DNA of 41,399 bases from Microbacteriaceae bacterium UBA963 (GCA_002292955.1 DBCH01000042.1:537-41935), one strand, 5' to 3'. Counted from the first letter of the stretch, positions 20,738 through 41,232 are shown. The notes: generated by a model not told the origin, from the sequence alone. Numbers and translations: made by a program.

Positions 20738-22084
20738 ATGACGACAACTGTTGAGATTTCGGCGGGCATTGCTCAAGAACGGCTGATTCGCACGGCCATT
20801 CCCGGCCCCAAGTCGCAGGCCATGCACGCGCGCCGCGCCGAAGTCGTGTCCACCGGTGTGGGCGCTGCCCTGCCGGTCTACATTGCCGAGGCACACGAGT
20901 CCATCGTGGTCGACATCGACGGCAACCAATTCATTGACTTCGCCTCGGGCATTGGTGTCACCACGATTGGACACACCGACGACGCTGTGGTTGCCGCGGT
21001 TGCCGAGCAGGCAGCTCTGTTCACCCACACGTGCTTCACCGTCACCCCTTACGAGGGCTACGTGCGCGTTGCCGAGCTGCTGGCCCAGCACACGCCCGGT
21101 AACCACGCCAAGCGCACGATGCTGTGCAACTCAGGCGCCGAAGCGATTGAGAACGCCGTGAAGATTGCCCGCAAGTTCACCGGAAAGAACGCCATCGGTG
21201 TGTTGGACCACGCCTACCACGGTCGCACCAACATGACCATGGCGATGAACTTTAAGAACAGCCCCTACGCCACCGGCTTTGGCTCGCTGGGCACCGCGGT
21301 GTTCCGCGCCCCCAACTCCTACCCGTACCAGGACGGACTCTCGGGCGAGGAAGCAGCCGAGCGCACCATCTGGTACTTCGAGAAGCAGGTCGGTGCCGCA
21401 GATCTGGCCGCCATCTTTGCCGAGCCCATTCAGGGCGAGGGCGGCTTCATGGTGCCGGCCGAGGGATACCTCACCCTGCTCCAGGAATGGTGCCACAAAA
21501 ACAATGTGGTCTTTGTTGCCGACGAGGTGCAGAGCGGCATGGCGCGCTCGGGCACCTACTTCGCCTCGGAGGGCTTTGGCCTCGTTCCCGATCTGATCAC
21601 GGTGGCCAAGGGCATTGCCGGTGGAATGCCGCTCGCCGGAGTTGTCGGCCGCGCCGACATCATGGATGCGGCTCACCCCGGAGGGCTCGGCGGTACCTTT
21701 GGCGGAAACCCCGTCTCGTGTGCGGCGGCCGTCGCGGTGTTCGAACAGATTGAGCGACTCAACCTGCTCGGCGAGGCACAGCGCGTTGAGAAGACGCTGA
21801 CCACCGGACTGGCAGCCCTGCAGAAGAAGTACCCGATAATCGGGGATATCCGCGGACGTGGCGCCATGATTGCGATGGAGCTCGTGGTTCCCGGAACAAA
21901 GAAGCCAGATGCCGCTGCGGTCAAGCACCTCGTCGACGTGGGTTTCCAGAACGGACTGCTTCTGCTCAACGCCGGCACAAACTACAACGTGCTCCGGTTC
22001 CTGCCGAACGTTCGCATGACGGACGAACTCATTGCGGACGCCCTCAGCGTTCTCGACGACGCCCTCGCCAGCTACACGAAGTGA
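20738..22084 (+). CDS. gabT: 4-aminobutyrate aminotransferase (class III PLP-dependent aminotransferase)
   Basis: 448 aa. IPGPKSQA N-terminus, [13 protein letters not shown], the PLP-lysine context [13 protein letters not shown], and GGTFGGNP. Confidence 0.85.
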
Positions 22085-22094
22085 TGCGACTCTC

Positions 22095-23210
22095 ATGCGC
22101 ATCGGTGTTCCCGCTGAGGTAAAGAACAACGAGTTCCGCGTTGCGCTGACACCGAGCGGTGTGCACGACCTTGCGTTGCACGGCCACGAGGTGACGGTTC
22201 AGTCGGGTGCCGGCATCGGCTCGGGCTTCACCGACGCCGACTTCGTGGAAGCCGGTGGCCGAATCGCGGACGACGTTGCTGCCGTGTGGGACTCCGCCGA
22301 GCTGGTCCTCAAGGTCAAAGAGCCTCAGCCGTCGGAATTCTCCAACCTGCGCGACGACCTCGTGTTGTTTACCTACCTTCATTTGGCCGCCGAGGCCGAA
22401 CTCACCCGAGCGCTGTGTACGGCCGGAACAACGGCACTCGCCTACGAAACCGTGCAGGCCGCCAACGGCACACTTCCCCTATTGGCGCCCATGAGCGAGG
22501 TGGCCGGGCGACTGGCCCCCCTCGTTGGCTCGCATGCCATGCTCGCGCCCCAGGGCGGGCCCGGGCTTCTGGTGTCGGGCGTCCCCGGAACGCACGCCGC
22601 GCACGTGGTGGTGCTCGGGGGTGGCGTGGCCGGAACGAACGCCATTCAAATGGCCGTGGGAATGGGCGCACAGGTGACGGTGCTCGACACCAACCTCGCT
22701 CGACTGGCGCAGCTTGATCTCGCCTTCCATGGCCGCGTCAACACCATCGCGTCGAACGCCCTCGAGATTGAACGCGCGGTGTGTGCGGCCGATCTGGTCA
22801 TCGGCGCCGTACTCATCCCCGGTGCGAAAGCGCCCAAGCTCGTGTCGAACGACCTCGTCGCGCGCATGAAGCCGGGAAGCGTGCTGGTGGACATCGCCGT
22901 GGACCAGGGGGGCTGCTTCGCCGACACCCACCCGACGACCCACGCGGATCCCACCTTCGCGGTGCACGGGTCAATCTTTTATTGTGTGGCCAACATGCCC
23001 GGCGCTGTTCCCCACACCTCAACGCACGCACTGACGAACGCGACCCTGCCGTTCGTGCGCCGGGTGGCAGACCTCGGTTGGCGGGATGCGCTCAGCGAGG
23101 ATGCGGCGTTGCGTTCCGGCCTCAACACGTGGGCCGGGAAGGTCACTAACTCGGCCGTCGCCGAAGCACACGGCATGGCCTTCACCCCGCTGGCCGAGGT
23201 CTTCGGCTAG
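22095..23210 (+). CDS. ald: Alanine dehydrogenase
   Basis: MRIGVPAEVKNNEFRVALTP N-terminus and the NAD fold VVVLGGGVAGTNA. Start at ATG 22095; the track ORF begins earlier, inside gabT. Confidence 0.93.
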   Translation: MRIGVPAEVKNNEFRVALTPSGVHDLALHGHEVTVQSGAGIGSGFTDADFVEAGGRIADDVAAVWDSAELVLKVKEPQPSEFSNLRDDLVLFTYLHLAAEAELTRALCTAGTTALAYETVQAANGTLPLLAPMSEVAGRLAPLVGSHAMLAPQGGPGLLVSGVPGTHAAHVVVLGGGVAGTNAIQMAVGMGAQVTVLDTNLARLAQLDLAFHGRVNTIASNALEIERAVCAADLVIGAVLIPGAKAPKLVSNDLVARMKPGSVLVDIAVDQGGCFADTHPTTHADPTFAVHGSIFYCVANMPGAVPHTSTHALTNATLPFVRRVADLGWRDALSEDAALRSGLNTWAGKVTNSAVAEAHGMAFTPLAEVFG

Positions 23211-25870
23211 GGGCCTGCCGGTAGCGCGGCCCGCACGTAGGAATCATCGGCCTCGAGAACCACAACGCTGTTTTCCAGTGGTGGCGGGATTCGGCGCATG
23301 TCACGTCCCACGTAGCGGGCTGTAATCCGCGCGACGCCGTGCCAGACCAGGGGCTCCTGTCTCACGCGGCGTCTCATCTCGTCAGAGAGCGTGAGGGCTT
23401 GCTCGGGCGTGAGCGCGTGGAGGAGAACTCTTGTTGCAGTGGCCGCCTGATGAGCCGACCACAACTCAGGTTCGTTGGTGAGCACCACTGCTCGACGACC
23501 CTGTAGCACCTCGGACAACGTGGGCAAAAGGTGCGTTCCCGCACGGCCGCGTCGGCCGAGAGAGAGCGCAGAGAGCTCGGCTGGGTCCAGACTCGGCCGC
23601 GTGAGTTGAACCGTGTCACCCCCCATCGCACCGCGTCCGGGATAGCGGGAACCAAGATCGATTCGGGTTCGCACGTGTCGGGTCACCGTACTGAGCGCGG
23701 GCTCATCCCCCGACGTTGAGAACACCAAAAATCTGCCCCGACCGGGACCCTCGCGCGCCACACGCTCGAGAGCCGCAACGAGATCATCGAGTGCGTCGTC
23801 CGGTGTCAACCGCACAATCGCATCGAGCCCGTCGACCACCACCAGTTCCGGTTGGTGGGTGGGGCTCTGGTCACACTCCCGCGCAGCGTTGATGAGGGAA
23901 TCCCACGCGAGTGCAGGATGAACAGGTACGACCAACACTTTTCCTGAGTCTGCCGCGCGTCCCCTGTCGGGTGCGTCCTGATGGCTCAAGCGCCGGTGTG
24001 TCATAGCCTCACGCCTGATGTTCTGAAGCAGGGTCGTTTTTCCCGAACGCGGCCCGCCCACTACCCACAGGGCGCCGTCTCGCTCCGGCAGGTAGTCGAG
24101 CACCGACCAGCGCGTGGTGACGAGATCCTGCCTCAGGCCAAGCAGGAGCCCCTCCGGGCATTCCCCCGCGGAATGGGCAAGGTCGGTTACGGTCGTCTCC
24201 GACAGCTCTTTCGGCAACTCGGGCCACCACAACCGCCAGTCGTCGGCCGGAGCGGCCGCCGTCCACCGGGCAGCCGCCTCAAGAGTCGGCGCATCCACGC
24301 ACACCGGATTAACAGTGTCAATGAGCCCCGACGGTCGGCGCACGTAAAGCAGACGGGGCGTTGACGCAAGATCCGTGGGCGAGCGTTGCACTGTTGCGCC
24401 CAGCAGATAACGAGCATCGTCGTCACCCACGGGAGTCAGGCACAGTCGCGTCTGGGCGTTGACCAGCAGGTCATCTCCAAAGGCGCCGGCCGCCCGCTGG
24501 GTTGCCACGGCGAGATGCACACCGAGAGCGCGACCACGTGAGGCCACATCGGCAGTAATGCGGCGGGCGTCGGGAACAACGTCACACAGTGCGCGAAACT
24601 CGTCAATCACAATCAACAGGCGCGGGATGCGGACCGCGCGGGGCAGAGCGGAAATGTCGGTGCACCCTGCGTCACGCAACACGGTTTCGCGGCGGGCCAT
24701 TTCTGTTCGAATCCCGGCGAGGGCGCGCAGCACGTCATCACCGTCGAGATCCGTGGTGATTCCGGCGTTGTGAGGCAGTGACGCCACGCGGGTGAACCCA
24801 CCTCCGCCCTTGAAGTCGATGACGGCAAATCGAAAGCGCTCGGGCGGGTGTGCTGCGGCCATGCTGGCCAACAGTGCCACGAGCGTCTCGGTCTTACCGC
24901 TACCCGTGGCACCGGCCACGAGCATGTGCGGCACGTCGGTGCTGACCTCGCCCCACACCGGTGTCGGACCAGCGAGAGCATCAGTCCATCCCAGAATGCC
25001 CCTCACGTGACTGTGCTCGGGTCGCGGATCATGCTCATCGGCGCCGGGAGCATCGTTGCTCAACAACTCGACTCCCCTCAACTCGACCGCCGACATTTCG
25101 CCCGTCATCACTTCGCGCAGGTCACTCAGCGTGGGAGACGCGTGGCGAAGAGCGCGGGAGGCCTGGAGTTCGCGTTGGGCGCGGGTAGCGTGCGCCTCGG
25201 AGACTTCATCCACCAAAACGGCAACCGCGTCCAATGGCGTGCGCACATCTGTCAACTCCGCCCACCCCCGCTCCCCCAGTGTCAGTAGCAGCGTTGTATT
25301 CGCGGGAATCTCTGATCGGTGAGTAGCGTGGCTGATACTGCCAACCTCGGCGCCACTTCCGTTCCAGGCCCGGGTGAGGGTCAGGGCCCGGGCGACACGC
25401 TGACGCGCCTCCGGCGGACCCAGAACGCACACGTGTGCGTCGAGAGGAATGAGAACGGGACGTCGGCCCGGATCGAGCCCCACTCGGAAAGCGACCGGAG
25501 CTGCTGGACCCGCCCCGATGTCACGGGCGGCGGGGCGGTGGTGACCGTGGTCGAGGAGGTCCGCCAGGCTGGCATGTTGCCGGCGCGCCCTGCCGGCCTC
25601 CTGCTCGACTTCGTGCGCGCGCTGTTGTTCCGTCTCACGCTGCGCCCGAGTGGCATCCTCGGTTGCCACGCGCTGAGCCGCCCGGCCCTGTCGGCGGGCG
25701 TCAGCCAGAGAAGCCACCATGGCCACCGGGCCCATAAGAGCGAAAAGCATCATCGCCGGCGATGACGACACCCACCACATGACCAGAGCAAAGCCGAGCG
25801 GAACCAACAGCGAGAACAGCGGGACGGGCGTAACGCGAAGACCAGTTTTTCGGGAAGCCTCATGCGTCAT
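23207..25870 (-). CDS. FtsK/SpoIIIE-family membrane ATPase with two P-loop modules (EssC/EccC-like architecture)
   Basis: 887 aa.
- Two N-terminal TM helices (residues about 15-55), then a charged Arg/Glu/Gln-rich segment.
- Module 1: Walker A GATGSGKT (24890-24913) and Walker B LLIVIDEF (24596-24619).
- Module 2: Walker A GGPRSGKTT (24032-24058) and a Walker-B-like ELVVVDGLD (23822-23848) with no Glu after the Asp.
I verified all motif coordinates by back-translation. Confidence 0.85.
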   Translation of the reverse strand: MTHEASRKTGLRVTPVPLFSLLVPLGFALVMWWVSSSPAMMLFALMGPVAMVASLADARRQGRAAQRVATEDATRAQRETEQQRAHEVEQEAGRARRQHASLADLLDHGHHRPAARDIGAGPAAPVAFRVGLDPGRRPVLIPLDAHVCVLGPPEARQRVARALTLTRAWNGSGAEVGSISHATHRSEIPANTTLLLTLGERGWAELTDVRTPLDAVAVLVDEVSEAHATRAQRELQASRALRHASPTLSDLREVMTGEMSAVELRGVELLSNDAPGADEHDPRPEHSHVRGILGWTDALAGPTPVWGEVSTDVPHMLVAGATGSGKTETLVALLASMAAAHPPERFRFAVIDFKGGGGFTRVASLPHNAGITTDLDGDDVLRALAGIRTEMARRETVLRDAGCTDISALPRAVRIPRLLIVIDEFRALCDVVPDARRITADVASRGRALGVHLAVATQRAAGAFGDDLLVNAQTRLCLTPVGDDDARYLLGATVQRSPTDLASTPRLLYVRRPSGLIDTVNPVCVDAPTLEAAARWTAAAPADDWRLWWPELPKELSETTVTDLAHSAGECPEGLLLGLRQDLVTTRWSVLDYLPERDGALWVVGGPRSGKTTLLQNIRREAMTHRRLSHQDAPDRGRAADSGKVLVVPVHPALAWDSLINAARECDQSPTHQPELVVVDGLDAIVRLTPDDALDDLVAALERVAREGPGRGRFLVFSTSGDEPALSTVTRHVRTRIDLGSRYPGRGAMGGDTVQLTRPSLDPAELSALSLGRRGRAGTHLLPTLSEVLQGRRAVVLTNEPELWSAHQAATATRVLLHALTPEQALTLSDEMRRRVRQEPLVWHGVARITARYVGRDMRRIPPPLENSVVVLEADDSYVRAALPAGP

Positions 25871-26615: not shown

Positions 26616-28739
26616 TCAGCGACGTGCGCGACGACCAATGAACGACCACAGCGCTAATCGTCGCGCGAGACGCTGTCGACGCGTCAATCCGGTCATCAAC
26701 TCGTTTTCAAGGTCGCTGACAACAAGCCACGCGTTGCGCGCGTCGGCCGCCACGAGAGGATCCGCGGTGTACTCGGCGCGGTCAATGAGGAAAGCCAGTT
26801 GGGGGGCGTCCGGTACCTGAACGTTCGAAACAAGCTCTCGGTTGGTGGTTGACGCCGTCACCACATATCGGGCATCGATGAGCACATCGGCGGCCTGATC
26901 TCGGGCGCCCATGATCCGTTGCCGTGCATTTCCCCCACTCTGCCGCCGCCGACGCCGCCACGCTTTCGCGACCACGATGCACAGGGGAGGCACCATGAGC
27001 AACGCGCCCACGGCAGCGACCCCAGCCAGAGCTCGGAGAATGCCGAAGACGACACCCCACAGAGGATCTGTGTCATCGGTGTCAGCCTCCTCATCTGACT
27101 GTGGGGCCTGCGCGCCCCTAACCTGAGACACATCGGCCGGAGGCGGGTCAACGACCGATTGTGGCGGCGACACCCGATTCGGGTCGTCCGGGGGTGCGTC
27201 CGGGATGGGACGCGACTCGGGAACCGGGTCGATGGCCACCCAGCCGTCACTCGTGTTGACCTCAACCCACGCGCTCAGCTGTGAACCGATGATTTCTGTG
27301 GCGTTCTCGGGGACAACAAAACCCACCGCAACGCGCGCGGGGAATCCCACCTGTTGCGCGAGCAGCGCGGCAGCCACCGAGTACTGCTCGGCGTCGCCAA
27401 TCATGAGTTTGTCGGTGAGCAGCGACGTGATTCGCTCGGCCGAATGCCCGCTTCGTGAGGGCGGCTCGTCGGCTCCGCCATTACTGACATAGCCGTTCTG
27501 GAGGAGTGAGCCGAGCACGGCGACGAGTCGCTCACCGGGTTCTGCCGACGCCTCGCTGTGAGTCGCCACATAGGCCTGCACTCCCGCAGGCTCATCGGTT
27601 ACCACGGTGCGATCCGTGCCCGGCGTGGCGGTGGCCAGTCGGGCGAGATTCGTGGGTTCGATTCCGGGACCGGATACTCGGTACCGGAAACCCTGGGACA
27701 GCCCATTGAGGTCGATGGCGGTTTGCGCCGTGGGGCTGTAGTAGAGCGAGCCGATGCCCGTTCCGTTTGTTTGCATTCCGGCGAGGTCTCCTCGCAGCGG
27801 CAGCCACGGTCCGGTGAGCTGCTCAATCGTGATCTCGGCCGCGTCGGGGTCAACACCGTCGGCCAGGGCGTATCCCGATTGCCGGGTAAAGTCGCCGTCC
27901 GGCGTCCACACCGAATAGCTCACTCCGTCGTAACGCGAGAGCGTGGCAAGGGTCAGCATCTCGCCCGTCGTTGCGTTGGTCACACTGAACATTGGCACCT
28001 CGGCGAGGTCGCCTACTTCGTACGCGCGGAACGCGGAGAGGGGTGAGGGCAGCGAGGCTTCGTCGAGGGTCGGTGACACCCGTGAACGCCAGACTTCGGG
28101 GGGCGCGGTCATCGACAGTGCCACGCCCGCCGCCACAGCACCCACGACAACGGTTGCCCCGATGGCCGTCAGCTTGCGCATCACTCCCCCGGGCGTTGCG
28201 CTCAGCAGCGCCACGAGAACCGTGACAGCGATCAGCGCACCGGATACCACGGCAAAGCGCGGGTCGGCAAGACCGAGCCAGATGGCCACACCGGTCACCG
28301 CAATTCCCGGAACGAGGGCCAACGCGCGCCGGGCAACGGCAGCAGCGAGAACTACCGCCAGTGCCGAGCCGACCAGCGACAGCATGAAGACCGGCACGAG
28401 AAGTGCCCCGAACGAGCCCACGGGTGGCGTAATGGTGACAATCTGCTTCCAGCCCTCAACAGCTCCGAGAAAGAGCGCTTGCTCTCCGCCGAGCGTCGGA
28501 ATGACCCGCCACAGTGCCTGCTGTGGCACGGCGAGGGGTACCCCCGTCACGGCAAAGATCAGCACAAGACCCATGGGCAGTGTCCACCACGGCCACCGAC
28601 GACGCGTCACAATGGCGGCCACTGCGGCTCCCAAGACACTGCCGGCAACAACCGTCACGACAAACTCGGGCGTCTGAAAAACGGGCCACAGCGGTGTCAA
28701 CCCGAGCGCGACCACGAGCACGCCAAACGCGGCCATCAT
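26616..28739 (-). CDS. TgpA-like polytopic membrane protein with extracytoplasmic transglutaminase-fold domain lacking the catalytic Cys and His
   Basis: 707 aa. About 6 N-terminal TM helices, a large loop and one late TM (residues about 560-590). The core region is GDAEQYSVAAALLAQQVGFPARVAVGF..LSAWVEVNTSDGWVAIDP (27228-27398). It aligns with the canonical G-x-C-E-x-[FY]-A..G-I-P-A-R..H-A-W-V-E-V..G-W-x-x-x-D-P, but has Ala at the Cys position and Ser at the His position. The ATGA start overlaps the DUF58 stop. Confidence 0.8.
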   Translation of the reverse strand: MMAAFGVLVVALGLTPLWPVFQTPEFVVTVVAGSVLGAAVAAIVTRRRWPWWTLPMGLVLIFAVTGVPLAVPQQALWRVIPTLGGEQALFLGAVEGWKQIVTITPPVGSFGALLVPVFMLSLVGSALAVVLAAAVARRALALVPGIAVTGVAIWLGLADPRFAVVSGALIAVTVLVALLSATPGGVMRKLTAIGATVVVGAVAAGVALSMTAPPEVWRSRVSPTLDEASLPSPLSAFRAYEVGDLAEVPMFSVTNATTGEMLTLATLSRYDGVSYSVWTPDGDFTRQSGYALADGVDPDAAEITIEQLTGPWLPLRGDLAGMQTNGTGIGSLYYSPTAQTAIDLNGLSQGFRYRVSGPGIEPTNLARLATATPGTDRTVVTDEPAGVQAYVATHSEASAEPGERLVAVLGSLLQNGYVSNGGADEPPSRSGHSAERITSLLTDKLMIGDAEQYSVAAALLAQQVGFPARVAVGFVVPENATEIIGSQLSAWVEVNTSDGWVAIDPVPESRPIPDAPPDDPNRVSPPQSVVDPPPADVSQVRGAQAPQSDEEADTDDTDPLWGVVFGILRALAGVAAVGALLMVPPLCIVVAKAWRRRRRQSGGNARQRIMGARDQAADVLIDARYVVTASTTNRELVSNVQVPDAPQLAFLIDRAEYTADPLVAADARNAWLVVSDLENELMTGLTRRQRLARRLALWSFIGRRARR

Positions 28740-29956
28740 GCGGTGGCTCGATTTCTCGAGAGCAGCTTGGTGAGATCGTCCAAACGACCAATCGTTCCGA
28801 GGGTCAACCGGCCCGACGTGCGCATTCGGGGCGCTGATTCAACAGCGCAGCGCAGAGCCACGACCTCCACGCCGGCACCAAACGGCAGCGATGCCTGTTC
28901 AATCTCCGGCACACCGGCCACCGATCCGGTCACCGCAAAAACGACAGAGACATCGGCGGCGACGTTTGCCGCCAGAGGGGTGAGCCCAACCAAGGGCAAA
29001 CTGTTCGTAGTGAGAACTATCCCGGCGATCTCATCCAGGAGGCGCGCCGGTGAGACGCTCGTGAGCACGCTCATCGTTTCGCCACTCGTCGGGGCCGCAC
29101 GGCCCGAGCGCGCCGGAGTGCTCGAGACACTGGACCGAGAAACGGCGAACATCACGTCACGGCTGTCGCGCAGTGCACGCACCCCCAGGGAGGCGGCCGT
29201 GGAAACGGCGAGTTCAAACTCGGCGTCATCCGCATAGGCCTCGAGACGCGTGTCCAGGAGAATCAACATGCGCGAGCGACGGGTTTGTTCGTACTGACGA
29301 ATCATGAAGCGCCCCGTCTTGGCGCTCGACTTCCAGTGGATGTGGCGCCGATCGTCGCCGGGCACGTACTCGCGCAGGGCGTGGAACGACAGGTCCGAAT
29401 CTGTCAGGTCGCGCGAAGCCTCGCCCTCGAGGTCGCGCACGAATCCCGCACTCAGCGGCGGCAGGTTCGCCGTGGTGGGGTGCACCACGACCTTGGCGGT
29501 ACCCGGCAGGGCAACCGAGCGACGGTAGAGGCCAAACGGATCGCGGCGCACAACCGAAATGGGACCGAGAGGAATCACCGTGCGACGTGGCGCTTCGACC
29601 GTGAGAGTCTTTTCGTGGACCGCACCAACGTTCACGCGCGGTATGCGCTCGGTGACCGTGCGTGCGCCCACGGGTATATCAAGGTCGGTTGCCGAGGTGG
29701 CCCGTCGCGCGGGGCTGACGAGTCGCAAGCGCACCTCCGCAGCGCTGCCGGGCAGCACGCGATAGACCTCAGCGTCAAAGGCCACGGCCAGCAGAGTCCT
29801 TCTGCGCAGGACGGTGAGTCCGAGGAGCGACACCAGCGCGAGTGCCACACCGAGCATCACAACCTCGCGCCAGGCGAGGCTGAGTCCGGCGAGCAGGCAC
29901 GCCACAGTGACCGACCAGACAACCCAGCCGGTTACGGTGACCCACCTCAACAACAT
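28736..29956 (-). CDS. DUF58-family protein (degenerate vWA-like), two N-terminal TM helices
   Basis: 406 aa. Hallmark DUF58 motifs RRDPFGLY and FHALREYVPGDDRRHIHWKSSAKTGRFMIRQYE, followed by MLILLD. Sits immediately downstream of MoxR, as in other MoxR-DUF58 pairs. Confidence 0.85.
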   Translation of the reverse strand: MLLRWVTVTGWVVWSVTVACLLAGLSLAWREVVMLGVALALVSLLGLTVLRRRTLLAVAFDAEVYRVLPGSAAEVRLRLVSPARRATSATDLDIPVGARTVTERIPRVNVGAVHEKTLTVEAPRRTVIPLGPISVVRRDPFGLYRRSVALPGTAKVVVHPTTANLPPLSAGFVRDLEGEASRDLTDSDLSFHALREYVPGDDRRHIHWKSSAKTGRFMIRQYEQTRRSRMLILLDTRLEAYADDAEFELAVSTAASLGVRALRDSRDVMFAVSRSSVSSTPARSGRAAPTSGETMSVLTSVSPARLLDEIAGIVLTTNSLPLVGLTPLAANVAADVSVVFAVTGSVAGVPEIEQASLPFGAGVEVVALRCAVESAPRMRTSGRLTLGTIGRLDDLTKLLSRNRATA

Positions 29957-29974: not shown

Positions 29975-30955
29975 TTACGCCTGACGAACGGGGGTGTCGA
30001 TAAGAATCTGACTCATCACGCTCGTGGCAGTGACGCCGTCGAACTCCGCCTCGGCGTCGAGCACGAGACGATGGGCAAAGACGGCATCGGCCAAATCCTT
30101 GACGTCGTCGGGCGTGACAAAGAGGCGACCCGCTGAGATGGCCGCGACGCGAGCCGCCCTTGTCAGAGCCAGGGCCCCGCGCACGCTCACGCCCAGGCGA
30201 ACCTCGGGGGCCGACCGCGTGGCCTCGGTGAGGCGCGTGATGTAGTCGAGCACCTCGGGGGCAACGTGAATTCCTTCCGCGAGCGCAGCCATCTTGGTGA
30301 CCATCTCGGCCGTCACGATGGGCTCAACGTCGGCGACGGCACGAGCCGAACGCGAGGCGAGAATGTTGACGGTCGCAGCGTGGTCCGGGTACCCCAGGGA
30401 TGTTTTCATGATGAAGCGGTCGAGCTGTGCCTCGGGTAGTCGATACGTGCCCGCCTGCTCGATCGGATTCTGGGTTGCGACGACCATGAACACCTCCCCC
30501 ACCTCGTGCGTTACTCCGTCGACGGTGACCCGGCGCTCTTCCATGACCTCGAGGAGTGCTGACTGCGTCTTAGGGCTAGCCCGGTTGATCTCGTCGGCCA
30601 GCACGATGTTGGCGAAGATGGGGCCCTCGTGAAAGGTGAAACTGCCCTTCTTCTGATCAAAGATGCTCACTCCCGTGATGTCGCCGGGCAAGAGATCGGG
30701 AGTGAACTGAATCCGGGAGTGCGAACCCTTGACACTCTGTGCCATGGCCCGCGCCAGTGAAGTCTTTCCCGTGCCCGGATAGTCCTCAATCAACAGGTGG
30801 CCCTGGCTGAACATCGCCACAAAGGCCAGGCGGATCACGCGGGCCTTGCCCACGACAACCTGATCGACATTGTCAACCAGGCGATCAAAAACGCTCGCGA
30901 AACCCGCGGCCTGCTCATCGGTGACGGGGGTGGGGGTGCTGTCATTCTTTGCCAT
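29975..30955 (-). CDS. MoxR-family AAA+ ATPase
   Basis: Walker A EDYPGTGKTSLARAMA. Walker B and sensor VLADEINRASPKTQSALLEVMEE. FTPDLLPGDITG. Start at ATG 30955 (MAKNDST). The track ORF continues to 31189, but that stretch lies inside the giant upstream gene. Confidence 0.92.
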   Translation of the reverse strand: MAKNDSTPTPVTDEQAAGFASVFDRLVDNVDQVVVGKARVIRLAFVAMFSQGHLLIEDYPGTGKTSLARAMAQSVKGSHSRIQFTPDLLPGDITGVSIFDQKKGSFTFHEGPIFANIVLADEINRASPKTQSALLEVMEERRVTVDGVTHEVGEVFMVVATQNPIEQAGTYRLPEAQLDRFIMKTSLGYPDHAATVNILASRSARAVADVEPIVTAEMVTKMAALAEGIHVAPEVLDYITRLTEATRSAPEVRLGVSVRGALALTRAARVAAISAGRLFVTPDDVKDLADAVFAHRLVLDAEAEFDGVTATSVMSQILIDTPVRQA

Positions 30956-30983
30956 GGTGCATATTCTCTTCTGCTGAGGGCGG

Positions 30984-33900
30984 TTATTCGCCGAAGGTGG
31001 GTACGGGAATCGTGGCCGAGCCGCCGGCGGCGCCGCAGACGCCCTCGGCCGTGCAACCGCGAATGGTGATGGTGAACGGATTGGCGAGGTCGCCGGTGGG
31101 GGCATCAAACGTGAACGAACTGGCGGTGGCAACGTCGGCGACGAGATCGAACCAGCTGGCGCCGATCTGAACTTGCCAGACCGCCACAAGCGCTGCGGCG
31201 CGATCGACCGTGGGAGACACCACGGTTATTCGTGTCGTGCTCGCGTCGAGCGCGGTGAGGGTTGCCTCTCCGTAGGAGGCGGTACCGGGAACCGTCGTGA
31301 CCGTGACACTCGTGACGTCGCCGGCGCATCCCCACGGGGTGACCGCATAGACGGCGAACCAGTAGGTGCCGTCGGCCAACGGCTCGGAATCGCTCCAGGT
31401 GGTGGCCGTCGTGGACGCGGTGGCACCGGTCGCGGGGTCGGCGGGACACGAGGCTGACACCTCACTCGAACTGCGCCACACGTAGTAGACGGGTGCCTCC
31501 GGTGCGCCGCGCCTGTCGGCTGCCGACCACGACAGGTTCATTCCCGACGCATCCGCGCTGAGCCCCCCGCCCCACACCGGCGGGCCGGCGGCCGTCACCG
31601 TGGCCGACGTCTGCCAGTTCCAATCGAGAGTGTCTGAATCGTTGACAGCGGCGACGCGCACCGAGTACGCCGAACCCGCTCGACCCCAGTAGGTGGGAAT
31701 CGACGTGTCGCTCGCGGCCGCCCGCAGGTCGGCGATCAACCCACCGTCCTCGTAAATCTCAACGCGGTAGCCATTCACGGCGCTCGCCCCCGTGGGCGCG
31801 GAAACGGCTGCCCACGACACGTCGATACCGCCACCCGCCGGTCGGGCGCTGTTGTAGTTGACCCTCGACACCGTGACCTCGGCGGGAGCGGGCGGCGAGC
31901 GGTCCGCACCCAGCGGTTCGCTCCATGGACTCGGCGCCGACGTACCCACACCGTTAATCGCGACCACCTGGAAGCGGTACTTGGCTCCCGTGGGCAGTCC
32001 GTCCAGGGTGCACACGGTTGCCGCGCACGTGCGGGTGTAGCCGCCGTCACTGGTCACGACATACTCGGTTATCGGAGAATTGTTTCCCGCGGGAGCCGCC
32101 CAGCTCAGCGTCAGCTCACCGTTCACAAAGCCCGCGGCGCGCACGGGCACCGTGGGCGAATCCGGAACATCCTGGATTGCGATCGTCACCACGCCCCACG
32201 AGTAGCGATCAGGATCGTTGGTGGCATCGGCCACTTCGTACTGCAGGGTGACGTCTGCCGCTCGGGCAGACTCGGCCACCACCACGTTGAGTCGGGACTT
32301 GTCCGGTGAGGGCAACACCGTGACGCCCTCGGGCAGATCGGCCGTATCCGTGCCGCGAACCGCGATGACCCGCAGTGGCGTGTTGGGGAACGGGTTGGTG
32401 GCCTGATCATTGGCGAGCACGTCCACTTCGACCGCCGAGCCGCGACGAACCGTTGCGGTGTCGGACTGCGGAACGGCGAGCGGCCGCGTCGACGGCACAA
32501 TCGCGATGAGCACGGTACCCGCCTTTCCCTCGCTCACCGCATCGGACGGTGTCACCTCGAGGGCGAGGGTGGATCCCTTCACGGCCCCCGGCGCTGCCGT
32601 GATGGTGAGGTTTGTCCCCTCAATGCGTGTCGTGACGCCCTCGGTGGAGCCGCGCAGGCGGAACGTCAGCTCGCCAACGTTCTTGGCGTAGGGGTAACGG
32701 GTAATCTTCACCAGATCGATTTCTTTGGTCGAATCCGGCTCAAGATCAATCTGGGTGTCCTGAAGCACCGGCGGTTGGTTGCCACGCGGCGTGACCACGA
32801 TGGGTAACACAATCACCGCGCGACGACCCTCGGGATCATCGACACTCGAACCGTCGGTGACCTCGAACGAGAGAGACGCGGGACCAAAATAGAGATTCTC
32901 GCTGGTGTACTCAACCGTTCGGTCATCAATCACCAGCTGGTCGCCATTGGCGTGCGTGGCCCGAACCGTGTCGTTCGACGTGAGACGCACCTGCTTGCCC
33001 CCGGCGGCCGTGACGTAGTCGTTGATGTTGATGCGCACCGTTTTCTCGCTCGCGACCGTAATGGGGTCGACTCCCAGTTTCACCTGCGGCCGCGCATCGT
33101 CGGTGCCGGGAACCCAGACAAACGCGTACGACACGATGGACGGATCATCGGGGTGGGTGACGCTAAAGGGAATCACCTGAGATTTCTGACCCACCGTGAC
33201 ACGAATCTTGTTGCCCGATTCAACCCGGGCATTCCCGGGATATCCGGCCACGATGCTCGGGGTGAGCGTGCGAACATCGCCATCCGCCCAGAAGGCGTTG
33301 GCGAGCGGATCCACGACAACCTCGCTGCGCGTGAGAATCTCGGTGAGGGCCACCACGCTGTCGCTCAGCACGGGAGCGTTGAGGGGCGCATCGCTGCGCA
33401 CGTCTAGCGTGATGAAGCTCGAGGCCGTCCCCGCCACATCGTTGGAAATTTCATAGATCAGCCCGTACGTGCCCGGCTGATCGGGCACCATGATGAAGAC
33501 CTGGTTTGCCAGGATTTCTGCCGTGATTCCCGGAGTGGTGGGTTCAACCGAGGTGATGGTGAGCGGACGACGTCCCGGGTCGCTGTCGTTGGCCAACGGA
33601 TCAACCACGATGGTGCGCCCCGGTCGCACCACTACGGCGTCGGGCGCCGCCGAGGGCGACGTTGACCCTGTGGCCACGGAGGCGATGCCCACGCGGATGA
33701 CCCCGCTGGCCTCCGCTCCGAATCCGTCGAGGACGGAGTACAAGAACACGTCTGTTTCCGTTGCATACGGACCGGCCTCGTACTCTATCCAGTCGGCACC
33801 CACCGCGGTCACGGCACCCTTGGTGGGATTCGAGGCCAGACCTGCGAGCTGAACGTTGTCGCCATCAGGGTCAGCTTTGGCCAGCGGCAGGGGAATGCGA

Positions 33901-37532: not shown

Positions 37533-38372
37533 CTATCCCGTCTCACCGGGCGGGGTCACGGCGAGCACGTCGATTACAACGACGGTGATGTTGTCGCGCC
37601 CACTGTTGCTGAGCGCGTTCTTGAGGAGCTCGTGAGCGGCCTCCTCGGCCGTGGCGGTCGTGACGAGAAAGTGTTCAATGCCCACATCGGTAATTTCTTT
37701 GGTGAGCCCATCAGTACACAGCAACACGCGCGACGCTGGCACGAGCGGAAAGGTCGAAAACTCGGGCACCGGGGGTTCCATGAGCCCGACGGCACGCGTG
37801 ATCACATTTGCGTGCGGGTGAATGTCCGCTTCGTCGCGCGTGATTGAACCGGCATCCACCAGCTGTTGCACCACGGAGTGGTCGCGAGTCAGTTGCTCGA
37901 GAACGCCGTCGACGAGACCGTAAACCCGAGAATCACCGATATTAAACACCGCCCACTCCAGGCCACCTTCGGCGAGCACCAGTGCCGCACCGGTCACTGT
38001 CGTGCCGGCCGACCGCTGTGCGTCGCTGACCTGAGCGCCCAAGTCGGACACGGCCCGCTCGAGCGCCGGCTGGACATCGTCGATATTGGCAAAACCGTCG
38101 CTCTGCAGCTCCGCCAGTCGCGAGACCACTGCGCCGCTGGCGATATCACCCGCCGAGTGTCCGCCCATGCCGTCGGCCACCGCAAAAACGGGACACGCAG
38201 CCACAAAGCTGTCTTCGTTGGCCGAGCGGTGCAGTCCCACATCGGTGGCTACGGCCCACGAGATCGTGACGGTGGCGCCGGTAACGGAGTCGCGCACGGT
38301 GTGCCCCGTGGTGTTGACTCCGATAGCGGTCACGACTCGATACTCCCCTGCAAATAGGTTTCCCCGCTGCAC
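37533..38372 (-). CDS. PP2C-family Ser/Thr phosphatase
   Basis: NEDSF, AVADGMGGHSAGDIAS, NIGDSRVY, LLCTDGL and GRDNITVVVIDV. The GTG start at 38372 lies 5 nt after the FHA gene stop. The exact start is uncertain because several in-frame GTGs follow. Confidence 0.9.
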   Translation of the reverse strand: MQRGNLFAGEYRVVTAIGVNTTGHTVRDSVTGATVTISWAVATDVGLHRSANEDSFVAACPVFAVADGMGGHSAGDIASGAVVSRLAELQSDGFANIDDVQPALERAVSDLGAQVSDAQRSAGTTVTGAALVLAEGGLEWAVFNIGDSRVYGLVDGVLEQLTRDHSVVQQLVDAGSITRDEADIHPHANVITRAVGLMEPPVPEFSTFPLVPASRVLLCTDGLTKEITDVGIEHFLVTTATAEEAAHELLKNALSNSGRDNITVVVIDVLAVTPPGETG

Positions 38373-38377
38373 GGGCC

Positions 38378-39046
38378 TCAGATCTGAGAGTGCGACCGAG
38401 CGGGGATAACCATAATTCTACCGCTGTGCCCAAATTCCACGGTCGCCTCGCCGGTCGTTGTGTAGGTCTCCCGCGGACCGAGACGACGCGGGGTCTGACC
38501 GGGCACGCGAACGCGCGTTCCATTGGCCGACCCGAGGTCGGTTATGACGACTCCAGCGCCCGTCTGTTCCAGCATCAGGTGAGACGCCGACACTTCGCGA
38601 TCATCTCCCGGCCACGACAGCAAGAGCACGCGTTCTTGGGGTCCGAGGGGTGTGCGGGGAGCACGTCCCAACACAATGGGGCGATGCAGGGTGAACTCTT
38701 GGCCACCGGGTTCCCGCAAGCGGGCGCAGGTCTCGGGGTCCGGGGCAGTCGAGATGCGGGGAACGACGCGAACATCGGTGAGGTCGTCGACCGGTTGAGC
38801 TGTTCCCGCGGGTGCTCCCACAACGACAGTGGACTCTTCGATGATGACGGTGTCGTCACCAGCGGCTATCCGCGTCTGATCGTCACGCAGGGTCGTGATG
38901 TCGCGCACGGTGTCGTCCGCAACGATCAAGCGGGTCGTTTCTGCGCTCAGGCGGGTCGTTTCTGCGCTCAGTAGCGTCGCGTCATCCAGATCGTCATCCA
39001 GGCCGTCATCCAGCTCGTAATCTGCCCCGTTATCCGCCATGTGCAT
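38378..39046 (-). CDS. FHA-domain protein with acidic, Thr-containing N-terminal region
   Basis: 222 aa. N-terminus DYELDDGLDDDLDD, then a duplicated LSAETTR. C-terminal FHA signature VLGRAP..SASHLMLE..VITDLGSANGTRV. First gene of the block. Start at ATG 39046 or ATG 39040. Confidence 0.8.
   Translation of the reverse strand: MHMADNGADYELDDGLDDDLDDATLLSAETTRLSAETTRLIVADDTVRDITTLRDDQTRIAAGDDTVIIEESTVVVGAPAGTAQPVDDLTDVRVVPRISTAPDPETCARLREPGGQEFTLHRPIVLGRAPRTPLGPQERVLLLSWPGDDREVSASHLMLEQTGAGVVITDLGSANGTRVRVPGQTPRRLGPRETYTTTGEATVEFGHSGRIMVIPARSHSQI
38930..38971 (-). repeat. Perfect in-frame 21-bp tandem duplication (two copies) in the FHA gene
   Basis: GCGGGTCGTTTCTGCGCTCAG occurs at 38930-38950 and again at 38951-38971 with no mismatch. 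It encodes LSAETTR twice. Confidence 0.95.
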
Positions 39047-39052
39047 ACTTTA
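39047..39052 (-). promoter_or_regulatory. Candidate -10 hexamer (TAAAGT) for a leaderless transcript of the nine-gene block
   Basis: On the minus strand TAAAGT abuts ATG 39046 and ends 6 nt before the second ATG (39040). No SD is present upstream of either ATG. Confidence 0.3.
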
Positions 39053-39073
39053 TGTTGTGGGGTCGCCCGCATG

Positions 39074-39093
39074 TTTATTTGCTTGCCAACACG
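39074..39093. promoter_or_regulatory. Palindrome TGCCAA-N8-TTGGCA in the divergent intergenic region (candidate operator)
   Basis: Exact 6-bp inverted arms at 39074-39079 and 39088-39093. They lie within the 111-nt gap between the FHA gene and the aminotransferase gene. Confidence 0.25.
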
Positions 39094-39157
39094 CGGCTTG
39101 GCAGAATCAAGGGGGAAGCAAACGGCCCCCGACAACAACGCGGGCCGACGGAGAGAT

Positions 39158-40588
39158 ATGAGCCTCGAAACCCACCACAGCGTCGCCCTCGATCACGAGG
39201 GGCTCGTGACGGGCGATTTCCGTCAAGACAACGACGCCCTGCAGACCAAAGCGCGCGACCACCTGTGGATGCACTTCACCCGCCAGTCGAACATGCACGA
39301 GATGGGTGTGCCCATCATTGTTCGCGGCGAGGGCCACACCATCTACGACACTCAGGGGCGTTCCTACATCGATGGGCTCTCCGGCCTGTTCACCGTAAAC
39401 GCGGGCTACGGTCGTCGTCGCCTTGCCGAGGCCGCCGCCAAGCAGATGGAAGAACTCGCCTTCTTCCCCATCTGGTCTTACGCACACCCGTCTGCCATCG
39501 AGTTGGCCGATCGGCTTGCCGATTACGCTCCGGGCGACCTGAACCGCGTCTTTTTTGCGACCGGCGGTGGCGAGGCAAACGAGACGGCGTGGAAGCTCGC
39601 TAAGCAGTACTGGAAACTTCAGGGCAAGCCCATGAAGACCAAGGCAATTGCCCGGTCGGTCGCGTATCACGGCACTCCCCAGGGGGCACTCTCTCTCACC
39701 GGAATTCCGGCGATGAAGCAAATGTTTGAGCCGCTCGTGCCCTCGGCTCACCACGTGGCCAACACCGACTTCTATCGAGCCCCGGAGCACGGCGACGACC
39801 TGCTGGCCTTCGGTCAGTGGGCCGCTAACCAGATCGAACAGGCTATTTTGTCTGAAGGGCCCGACACGGTTGCCGCGGTATTCCTCGAGCCGGTGCAGAA
39901 CGCGGGCGGATGTTTGACCCCGCCGCCCGGATACTTCCAGCGGGTTCGCGAGATCTGCGACAAGTACGAGGTGCTCTTGGTGAGCGACGAAGTGATCTGT
40001 GCGTTCGGTCGCATCGGCAACATCTTTGCGTGCACCACCTACGACTTCGTGCCCGACATGATCACATGCGCCAAGGCCATGACGAGTGGCTACTCGCCCA
40101 TTGCCGCCACGATTATCTCCGATCGCATCTACGAGCCTTTTAGCACGGGCAAGGTCACCTTCCCGCACGGATACACGTTTGCCGGCCACCCGGTTTCGGC
40201 GGCTGTAGCGCTGGCCAACCTCGACATTTTTGACGAAGAAGATCTGTGCGGAAACGTGCGCCGCAACAGTCCCCTGTTTCGCGCCGAACTCGAGACGCTC
40301 CTCGACAACCCCATTGTGGGGGATGTGCGGGGCGACGGCTACTTCTTTGCCCTCGAGTTCGTCAAAGACAAGGCCACCAAGCAGACCTTCGACGCCGATG
40401 AGCGCGAACGTCTGCTGCGCGGCTTCCTGTCCACCGCCGTGTTTGATGCGGGTCTGTACTGTCGAGCCGACGATCGCGGAAACTCGGTTCTCACCCTCGC
40501 GCCGCCGCTGACCACCGGCCCCAAGGAGTTTGCCGAAATCCGCGAGATTCTGTCGGACGTGTTGACGCGCGCCCTCGAGGTCATCTAG
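39158..40588 (+). CDS. Class III PLP-dependent aminotransferase (omega-amino acid / diamine transaminase-like)
   Basis: Start at ATG 39158, preceded by GGAGAG. Motifs LWMHFT, GGGEANETA, DEVICAFGRIG and the PLP-lysine context MITCAKAMTSGYSP. The track ORF begins earlier, at 39041. Confidence 0.88.
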   Translation: MSLETHHSVALDHEGLVTGDFRQDNDALQTKARDHLWMHFTRQSNMHEMGVPIIVRGEGHTIYDTQGRSYIDGLSGLFTVNAGYGRRRLAEAAAKQMEELAFFPIWSYAHPSAIELADRLADYAPGDLNRVFFATGGGEANETAWKLAKQYWKLQGKPMKTKAIARSVAYHGTPQGALSLTGIPAMKQMFEPLVPSAHHVANTDFYRAPEHGDDLLAFGQWAANQIEQAILSEGPDTVAAVFLEPVQNAGGCLTPPPGYFQRVREICDKYEVLLVSDEVICAFGRIGNIFACTTYDFVPDMITCAKAMTSGYSPIAATIISDRIYEPFSTGKVTFPHGYTFAGHPVSAAVALANLDIFDEEDLCGNVRRNSPLFRAELETLLDNPIVGDVRGDGYFFALEFVKDKATKQTFDADERERLLRGFLSTAVFDAGLYCRADDRGNSVLTLAPPLTTGPKEFAEIREILSDVLTRALEVI

Positions 40589-40677
40589 CCTCTTTCACTT
40601 GCGTTTCTCACCGGCGTTGATCTGAGGCACTATCGTCGCGTCCGGAGAGGCGAAGCGGCGGAGTATTCTTCCCGTCG

Positions 40678-40683
40678 TAGGGT
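40678..40683 (+). promoter_or_regulatory. Candidate -10 hexamer (TAGGGT) for a leaderless tspO transcript
   Basis: A TANNNT hexamer ends 6 nt before ATG 40690. No SD is present. Confidence 0.35.
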
Positions 40684-40689
40684 AAACCT

Positions 40690-41232
40690 ATGTGGGGTAA
40701 TCGGCACGAGTTTCATCCGGGTTTTTACGGCGAACGAGAGTCCGGGGTTCGAGCCGTCGTGGGTGGCATTGCCTTCGTTGCCATTGCCTGGCTGGTGGGT
40801 ATTCTCGGATCCCTCAGCACAATCGGTAACGTCACCGGATGGTATGCGCAGGCGGACAAGGCTCCGTGGACTCCGGCCAACGAAGTTTTTGGTCCTGTCT
40901 GGTTGGCTCTCTACACGATCATGGCGGTAGCCGCCTGGCTGGTCTGGCGCGAACGGGGAAGCTTCTTTCGACGGCCCGCGCTCATTCTCTATGTCACGCA
41001 ACTCGCGCTCAACGCCGTGTGGACTCCGGTTTTCTTTGGCGCCTACCCCCTCGCCGGAAGTGCCGCGCTCTGGTGGGGAGTCGTGATCATTCTGCTTCTG
41101 GATGCCGCGGTCCTGGCCACCATGTTTGCGTTTGCCCGGGTATCCCGCGCCGCGGCGTGGATGCTCGTTCCCTACTGGATCTGGGTGCTGTACGCCACCA
41201 CGCTGAACGTCTATCTCGCCGTCAACAACTAG
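40690..41232 (+). CDS. tspO: TspO/MBR family tryptophan-rich sensory protein
   Basis: 180 aa with 5 TM helices. WYAQADKAPWTPANEVFGPVWLALYTIMAVAAWLVW and the Trp-rich C-terminus WMLVPYWIWVLYATTLN are characteristic. Confidence 0.85.
   Translation: MWGNRHEFHPGFYGERESGVRAVVGGIAFVAIAWLVGILGSLSTIGNVTGWYAQADKAPWTPANEVFGPVWLALYTIMAVAAWLVWRERGSFFRRPALILYVTQLALNAVWTPVFFGAYPLAGSAALWWGVVIILLLDAAVLATMFAFARVSRAAAWMLVPYWIWVLYATTLNVYLAVNN

Follow-up and report, generated by a model that had tools for sequence, protein, structure and literature searches.

The window analysed here is a stretch of 41,399 nt from Microbacteriaceae bacterium UBA963 (DBCH01000042.1:537-41935), and the gene in question is the ninth and last in a run of nine co-directional genes separated by gaps or overlaps of no more than 72 nt. 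The open reading frame (ORF; 23207–25870, minus strand) is intact and specifies a product of 887 amino acids (aa), referred to below as the short ATPase. It is very probably a paralog of EccC, the ATPase of the type VII secretion system (T7SS), which lacks the third ATPase module (D3) and is tied to the genes of the Esr (epibiont sensing and response) pathway. The operon is a PFNA/Esr-type surface threat-sensing cluster with a full set of EsrA–G homologues. Taken as a whole, we read the short ATPase as an EccC-derived output motor of Esr which would be gated by phosphorylation and an FHA protein and would act on a client other than a WXG100 protein; we give this reading a probability of roughly 0.5.

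Relationship of the short ATPase to EccC and FtsK

EccC and EssC possess three tandem ATPase modules, D1–D3, and in EccC it is D3 which docks the EsxB signal. The title of PDB entry 4n1a records EccC D3 crystallised with a substrate signal peptide. Within the same bacterial family we find three classes of FtsK-type protein: true FtsK, ATPases of ~1500 aa, and the short Esr-linked form. The ~1500-aa ATPases have three P-loop regions, a fused FHA domain that was detected in three of five fetched, and adjoining toxin-like genes.

Profiles of the separate parts were built from 21 short-form orthologs (the window and 20 further loci, the set also used for conservation) and run on eleven of the ~1500-aa ATPases. 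The module 1 profile scored 259–289 bits on D1 of these eleven proteins, 171–173 bits on Streptomyces EccC and 107–110 bits on FtsK. The region following the transmembrane (TM) helices matched its equivalent in 11/11 long ATPases over its length (25.8–88.8 bits), and the module 2 profile gave 52.7–108.6 bits on their D2 and at most 29.8 bits on their D3. The phylogeny called for in the initial annotation was a maximum-likelihood tree of 50 ATPase modules, in which all 21 Esr-linked sequences of module 1 fall into a single group (support 95/88) inside the D1 modules. Based upon these profile matches and the grouping in the tree, the short form is an EccC derivative minus D3 and the fused FHA domain.

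In an AlphaFold2 model for which 20 relatives were used (pLDDT 78.7), two TM helices and a long helix are followed by a domain at residues 125–245, module 1 at 289–535, module 2 at 575–760 and a small C-terminal domain at 785–885. Its best fold match is the cytoplasmic part of Thermomonospora curvata EccC [4nh0; Foldseek E 2.4e-26; VIA Z 30, root-mean-square deviation 6.2, 556 residues aligned], with EssC next, and FtsK matching a single module only. The profile of the whole family likewise gave 267 bits (E 2.9e-78) on EccC 4nh0, 158 bits on EccC D1 and 99.8 bits (E 1.3e-27) on FtsK 2ius. The protein lies below the cut-offs of the NCBIfam models TIGR03924 (130.3 vs 509 bits), TIGR03925 (99.3 vs 347) and TIGR03928 (131.9 vs 778).

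That the product might instead be a DNA translocase, either of the FtsK/SpoIIIE kind or of the conjugative TraB/TcpA kind, is what the name of its Pfam family, FtsK_SpoIIIE, would suggest. FtsK and TcpA are also good single-domain fold matches (VIA Z 24–27.5; module 1 against FtsK, Z 26–27.5), and in the tree a pair of FtsK sequences attaches beside the Esr group, though its branch has a length of 3.09 and support of only 81/72, and we do not rely on this position. The likeness to FtsK/SpoIIIE is one of fold in module 1. No 4TM, alpha or gamma domain of FtsK was found in the short ATPase (E<=0.01), unlike the true FtsK proteins of its relatives, which possess 4TM, alpha and gamma (genome G070) or alpha and gamma (G029); the window genome has its own FtsK on a different contig; and profile scores favour EccC D1 by at least 150 bits. 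The operon is fixed in its chromosomal context, and Pfam analysis of the window ORFs revealed no mobile-element genes around the ATPase. On domain content, profile scores and operon context we rejected this alternative as extremely improbable, and the earlier view of the protein as T7SS-type rather than a DNA translocase is borne out.

What the long form of EccC/EssC and the short ATPase share is a pair of TM helices, homology in the region that follows these, a catalytic D1, a degenerate D2 and an association with FHA domains. They differ in that the short ATPase lacks both D3 and the fused FHA domain, is ~600 residues shorter and ends in a C-terminal domain of its own; furthermore, the long paralogs adjoin WXG100 or toxin-like genes, which the short ATPase does not. 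At the loci of five long ATPases (L157–L161) the neighbouring products carry Abhydrolase_8 (alpha/beta-hydrolase), ADP-ribosyltransferase-exoenzyme-like and T7SS_signal domains, and are probably polymorphic Esx toxins.

Ahead of the ATPase modules a hydropathy scan identified two hydrophobic segments (residues 16–34 and 38–56), in agreement with the two TM helices annotated initially. The motifs described there for both modules were also recovered: in module 1 the Walker A VAGATGSGKTE (K326) and Walker B LLIVIDEF (D423–E424), which are canonical, and in module 2 the Walker A VVGGPRSGKTT (K611) and Walker B ELVVVDGLD (D680–G681), with Gly where the catalytic Glu would be expected. Pfam FtsK_SpoIIIE covers module 1 only (residues 313–460, E 7.4e-27), module 2 giving weak generic P-loop matches. 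When the four parts of the protein were compared with each other by hhalign, modules 1 and 2 shared the P-loop only (22 columns, probability 81%), and the N and C parts matched none of the other parts.

All of the module 1 motifs, GxTGSGK[ST], hhhhDE and GR...TQR, are kept in 21/21 orthologs. Since the same motifs recur in orthologs, the ATPase motifs are not due to chance. Ten of the 21 retain the module 2 Walker A Lys, eight have Arg at its position and three have Val, Thr or Leu. The residue after the Walker B acidic residue of this module is never Glu (0/21: three sequences have Gly, 17 have Asp and one reads ED-L). A catalytic Glu elsewhere in module 2 had been put forward as a possibility; Asp-Glu occurs in none of the 21, and an acidic residue three positions past the Walker B Asp (D683) is present in all of them, as it is in EccC D3 (VVDDYE). 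D683 may contribute to catalysis. The substitutions support the initial view that module 2 is a regulatory, hydrolysis-poor module rather than a catalytic one, and in many relatives it may be without the usual mode of nucleotide binding. In a Microbacterium homolog Pfam reports a Barstar domain (residues 629–709; 26.8 bits against a cut-off of 23.4), which lies within module 2, where it covers the conserved AWD...hhhhDD stretch, and not in the C-terminal domain; it is probably a chance resemblance and was set aside.

The count of only two modules, as first annotated, is right as far as P-loops are concerned; the module that has been lost is D3 in particular, and module 2 is followed by a structured domain of ~110 aa (residues ~780–887). 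Folded alone this domain reaches a pLDDT of 91.9, and it has a family-wide motif, GDPDxW...hhhDGC...R...PPP. Neither a Pfam family (E<=1, across 21 orthologs) nor a Foldseek match (E<=0.001) was found for it, nor did it match the long ATPases significantly (whole-sequence E >=0.014; single stretches <=2.6 bits). In a VIA search of ~48,000 chains the top eight were FtsK/HerA-type ATPases, including D3 of EccC and EssC, with Z of only 5.6–4.8. The domain may be a stripped remnant of the third module; because Z does not exceed 5.6, which is under the reliable level of the tool, a vestigial D3 is offered as a suggestion only.

Association with the Esr genes

The nine genes of the window operon encode, in order, an FHA protein, a PP2C phosphatase, a kinase, a giant Ig/FN3 surface protein, a MoxR ATPase, a DUF58 protein, a transglutaminase-like protein, a Zn-ribbon-FHA protein and the short ATPase. 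The pathway was named Esr in Schaalia odontolytica and proposed to be a defence sensor widespread in actinobacteria [Wang et al., bioRxiv 9 Sep 2026, PMC13622651], and what we say of that preprint refers to the accessible part of its text and tables. There EsrA is the giant surface sensor, EsrD a transglutaminase-like protein which retains EsrA, EsrE the kinase, EsrF the phosphatase and EsrG an FHA output protein phosphorylated on threonine. Forty percent of 3502 Esr pathways adjoin esx genes, and EsrG is at times fused to EccC; EccC is proposed to be modulated post-translationally through the EsrG2 FHA domain, and zinc-finger forms of EsrG are suggested to act on transcription. Table S3 of the preprint lists for Amnibacterium flavum the same nine genes and flanks, the last being an 888-aa “hypothetical protein” of the architecture “TM+TM+FtsK_SpoIIIE+AAA”. 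The part of this table examined has 25 occurrences of “FtsK” and none of “EccC”, and the short ATPase is unnamed; that is, it is not among the named Esr components.

The related PFNA operon of Bifidobacterium consists of pkb2, fn3, aaa-atp, duf58 plus tgm followed by prpC, a hypothetical gene and fha [PMC8430577], a core gene order also seen in the Bifidobacterium longum rows of Table S3 [PMC13622651]. It has the same core genes in the same order as the window operon, but no FtsK-type gene. Neither “FtsK” nor “SpoIIIE” occurs in two papers on the bifidobacterial operon [PMC8430577 and PMC6803598], and our literature search revealed no paper describing this ATPase inside such a cluster. To the Esx-linked Esr2 of Schaalia, as far as the accessible part of the preprint describes it, the window locus is alike in its gene set and in having an EccC-type ATPase beside the FHA output gene. 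It differs in that the ATPase is the only esx-like gene, adjacent EsxA/B or Aes-type substrates being absent, and in that the ATPase is the D3-less short form.

With the short ATPase as query (E<=1e-20), 188 of 201 genomes of the same bacterial family were matched, a count which includes the longer paralogs. Twenty loci of 20 kb each, picked from the match list and not at random, were then searched with the nine window proteins. All nine genes were collinear in 15; in three the ATPase followed the core at an incomplete locus (one at a contig end, two without some FHA or PP2C matches), and the remaining two had only Zn-FHA and ATPase or PP2C and ATPase. The short ATPase travels with the Esr genes, and in most relatives comes after the transglutaminase-like gene. 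Among five complete genomes of 1.3–1.7 Mb without the short ATPase, the transglutaminase-like query of the window operon found no match (0/5). The ATPase is kept in streamlined genomes of 1.4–1.8 Mb without other Esx machinery. From the locus counts and this co-absence we take the ATPase to be a lineage-typical accessory of Esr, not a universal part.

At 16 further loci, mostly of Microbacterium, the PP2C gene is directly upstream of the ATPase in 12, the remaining cluster not being nearby. In Microbacterium and its relatives (L006–L020, L132) the short ATPase is paired with PP2C only, detached from the Esr cluster. This pairing points to phospho-control of the ATPase itself. The scan of genome contigs from which these 16 loci were taken found no close relatives, only those at the level of Microbacterium and many unrelated FtsK genes.

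The operon, as PFNA and as Esr, and the idea that an FHA domain controls EccC were thus already known. What is new is that the short ATPase is a distinct D3-less EccC paralog which coexists with full-length Esx ATPases and is independent of WXG100, and that the five complete relatives in which the transglutaminase-like query found no match do not have it.

Client and mode of action

The residues GR, SxxH and N constitute the phospho-threonine-binding set of FHA domains. All are kept, together with CxxC...CxxC, in 15 orthologs of the Zn-ribbon-FHA protein, whose gene lies 72 nt upstream of the ATPase gene, so that the annotation of a free-standing FHA protein directly upstream is correct. It had further been supposed that the two genes represent an EssC split in two. 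The profile of this FHA domain gave 47.1 bits on the first FHA protein of the operon and 6.2–16.0 bits on the N-terminal fused FHA domain of 6/11 long ATPases, the other five having no match at the thresholds used. Because of this difference the Zn-ribbon-FHA protein is EsrG-type and not a detached piece of EssC, and the split was rejected. A predicted complex of ATPase residues 58–887 with FHA residues 100–219, made with alignments, had a score of 0.02 and a mark of 0.32, which speaks neither for nor against binding. Precedents for FHA control are the fused FHA domain of the ~1500-aa paralogs and the EsrG-EccC fusions mentioned in the accessible part of the preprint.

We searched for WXG100 proteins with PF06013 in six frames over the whole assembly (E<=1). 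There was no match in the window (contig C103), and a single one elsewhere in the genome (C92:1326-1574, 46.5 bits, above cut-off). It lies in a 95-aa ORF (C92:1314-1601), flanked by groEL and a gene for a sensor histidine kinase, which has a W-T-G and a C-terminal Y-A-E-M-E; by eye we take these to be the WxG and YxxxD/E signals. The statement that no WXG100-like ORF is evident is accordingly correct for the window, while the genome does hold one such gene, unlinked to the ATPase. Over the family a WXG100 protein is found in 194/201 genomes, some of them without any EccC-like ATPase, so the WXG100 gene is independent of the short ATPase.

A minimal type VII motor exporting this single unlinked WXG100 protein is one way to supply a client. 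In four complete small genomes (G070, G155, G029 and G079) the short ATPase is the only EccC-like protein besides true FtsK and there is one WXG100 gene each, which together with the signals read in the window-genome ORF would favour such an exporter. Arguing against it are the loss of D3, on which EsxB would dock, and the distance of 267–984 kb between the two genes in the same four genomes. The nearby WXG-like substrates in a complete genome that would have spoken against the initial annotation were not found. WXG100 is also present in 5/5 complete genomes without the short ATPase, of which G111 shows true FtsK only. In larger genomes WXG100 genes are found 1.6–5.5 kb from the ~1500-aa paralog in three of five checked, and the nearest placeable match to the Esr-linked ATPase of G094 is on a different contig. 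We consider this alternative improbable.

The giant protein of the operon had been named as another candidate client, and the strict co-occurrence of the two genes in one operon would suit an ATPase which exports or anchors it. It has, however, a classical N-terminal signal-anchor helix (residues 21–39) of its own. Schaalia EsrA, moreover, has a predicted Sec signal and is retained in an EsrD-dependent manner [PMC13622651], and bifidobacterial and other clusters, as partly documented, make the giant protein without such an ATPase. The signal-anchor helix and the ATPase-less clusters led us to reject this alternative, which we regard as highly improbable.

A further alternative is that the short ATPase has no export role and is an ATP-driven scaffold or remodeller inside the Esr membrane complex, where it might for instance assemble or reset the giant sensor together with the DUF58 and transglutaminase-like proteins, or is largely a regulatory relic. 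D3 is missing, as are the known T7SS membrane partners, and the operon's remaining membrane proteins are all conserved neighbours. In the accessible part of Kaur et al. 2020, FtsK-type domains, predicted there to be inactive, are listed as output domains in conflict systems of the MoxR-vWA type. Conversely, the presence of all module 1 catalytic motifs in every ortholog speaks, at the level of sequence, for a functional EccC D1-type motor. The known role of such a motor is protein export. Esr clusters of other families, in so far as they are described, also function without the ATPase. A remodeller or relic is in our estimation rather unlikely, though to be taken seriously.

The reading we prefer is that of an FHA-gated, EccC-derived output motor with a non-WXG client. 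The short ATPase would be a membrane-anchored P-loop motor derived from actinobacterial Esx (type VII) EccC, probably a hexamer driven by module 1 as in EccC, with module 2 probably serving as a nucleotide-dependent or purely structural regulator. It would probably be switched by a phospho-threonine circuit of kinase, PP2C and two FHA proteins, the most direct candidate for the switch being the Zn-ribbon-FHA protein encoded just upstream, and would thus form a post-translational output of the sensor, as has been proposed for Esr2 and EccC in Schaalia. On this reading the client would be no D3-docked WXG100 protein but either a protein that the lineage-specific C-terminal domain recognises or a membrane-bound part of the Esr complex itself. 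For FHA-gated export as such, which is argued by analogy, we lean slightly towards doubt. The broader idea that a T7SS motor, which with D3 and the WXG100 substrates shed may have ceased to secrete Esx proteins, has been turned into a dedicated signalling output, D1 under phospho-FHA control either exporting non-WXG clients or remodelling the Esr sensor complex, is speculative and we hold it to be unlikely.

Several points weigh against the preferred reading. The T7SS membrane partners EccB, YukC/EssB and YukD were each found in 0/5 genomes, the controls being positive in Corynebacterium glutamicum or Bacillus subtilis, so that the export channel is unaccounted for; and the window genome is 77% complete. 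Sixteen loci of other families were found with the transglutaminase-like protein, and ten of these hold a giant-protein gene. When ~6 kb downstream was fetched, an FtsK-type gene lay within it in only two of the ten clusters, and three other-family loci had the bifidobacterial order with no ATPase. The ATPase, absent as it is from eight of these ten clusters within the DNA fetched and from the bifidobacterial operon as published, is therefore not required for Esr function in general. If zinc-finger EsrG acts on transcription, as the preprint suggests in its accessible part, the ATPase would be a separate output. The link from FHA to ATPase is one of adjacency and of likeness to fused forms only, and the activity, oligomeric state and client of the short ATPase are predictions from sequence and model.

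The other operon genes and wider meaning

The features of the operon are collected in Table 1. A convergent alanine dehydrogenase gene closes the cluster, and aminotransferase and TspO genes lie beyond its start (Pfam). The flanks at 22032–23210 and 39041–41232 (alanine dehydrogenase, class-III aminotransferase, TspO) match those of the Amnibacterium flavum Esr locus as given in Table S3 of the preprint. Since the flanks are the same, the operon appears to occupy a conserved chromosomal site in the family.

Table 1. Features of the short ATPase and its operon (positions in the window)
Feature	Position	Strand	Basis
Esr-linked ATPase, very probably EccC-derived, 887 aa	23207..25870	-	Pfam FtsK_SpoIIIE E 7.4e-27; AF2 pLDDT 78.7; EccC 4nh0 best fold match
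Two TM helices, residues 16-34 and 38-56	25703..25825	-	Hydropathy scan; helices in model
Stalk helix and post-TM domain, residues 58-285	25016..25699	-	Profile matches all 11 ~1500-aa Esx ATPases
ATPase module 1, residues 286-540, D1-type, predicted active	24251..25015	-	K326, D423-E424, GRALG and TQR motifs; invariant in 21/21 orthologs
Module 2, residues 570-762, D2-type, degenerate	23585..24163	-	GGPRSGKT P-loop; Walker B VVVDG, which lacks the catalytic Glu
C-terminal alpha/beta domain, residues 780-887, no P-loop, in place of D3	23210..23533	-	Model pLDDT 91.9; motif GDPDxW...hhhDGC...R...PPP
Zn-ribbon and FHA protein, EsrG-type, 219 aa	25943..26602	-	Pfam FHA and Zn_Ribbon_1
TgpA_N and transglutaminase-like membrane protein, EsrD-type, 707 aa	26616..28739	-	Pfam; nine hydrophobic segments
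DUF58 protein, EsrC-type	28736..29956	-	Pfam
MoxR AAA+ ATPase, EsrB-type	29975..31189	-	Pfam AAA_3 E 1.2e-62; likely start near 30958
Giant surface protein, EsrA-type, 1868 aa	30984..36590	-	Signal-anchor helix at the N-terminus (residues 21-39), followed by repeats of the Big_9, cadherin-like and FN3 types
Ser/Thr kinase, EsrE-type, 326 aa, no TM helix	36566..37546	-	HRD and DFG motifs intact
PP2C phosphatase, EsrF-type	37533..38372	-	Domain profile matches
First FHA protein, EsrG-type, acidic Thr-rich N-terminal region	38378..39046	-	Pfam

As listed, the MoxR ORF runs 206 nt into the end of the giant-protein gene. Its true start is probably near 30958, since the alignment of relatives does not begin before residues 68–103 and residue 78 is a Met.

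In the transglutaminase-like protein the catalytic Cys and His are seemingly gone, the core, inspected by eye and without alignment to the Pfam model, reading ...GDAEQYS... and ...LSAWVEV...GWVAIDP. The transglutaminase motif has Cys and His at the positions which hold Ala and Ser in the window protein. The covalent anchoring role proposed for EsrD in the accessible part of the preprint may not apply to this protein.

In most other genera there are ~650 nt between the kinase domain and the giant-protein gene, and the window kinase has only 326 aa. Amnibacterium EsrE, as listed in the examined part of Table S3, has 470 aa and a TM helix, in contrast to the TM-less window kinase. The membrane anchor of the kinase seems to have been lost in the window genus and in some other small-genome relatives.

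If a T7SS motor has indeed been turned into a dedicated signalling output, which we hold to be unlikely, the short ATPase would be the first ATPase of T7SS type through which a surface threat sensor exerts its effect. How the FHA output acts is an open question in the Esr work, as far as the accessible part of the preprint shows, and the short ATPase offers a natural minimal case. Were it an FHA-gated motor, it would provide a simple system for studying phospho-threonine switching of a T7SS-type ATPase; were it non-secretory, it would be an example of the re-use of a secretion motor. The labels “FtsK/SpoIIIE” or “EccC” on these proteins of ~900 aa imply neither chromosome segregation nor WXG100 secretion.

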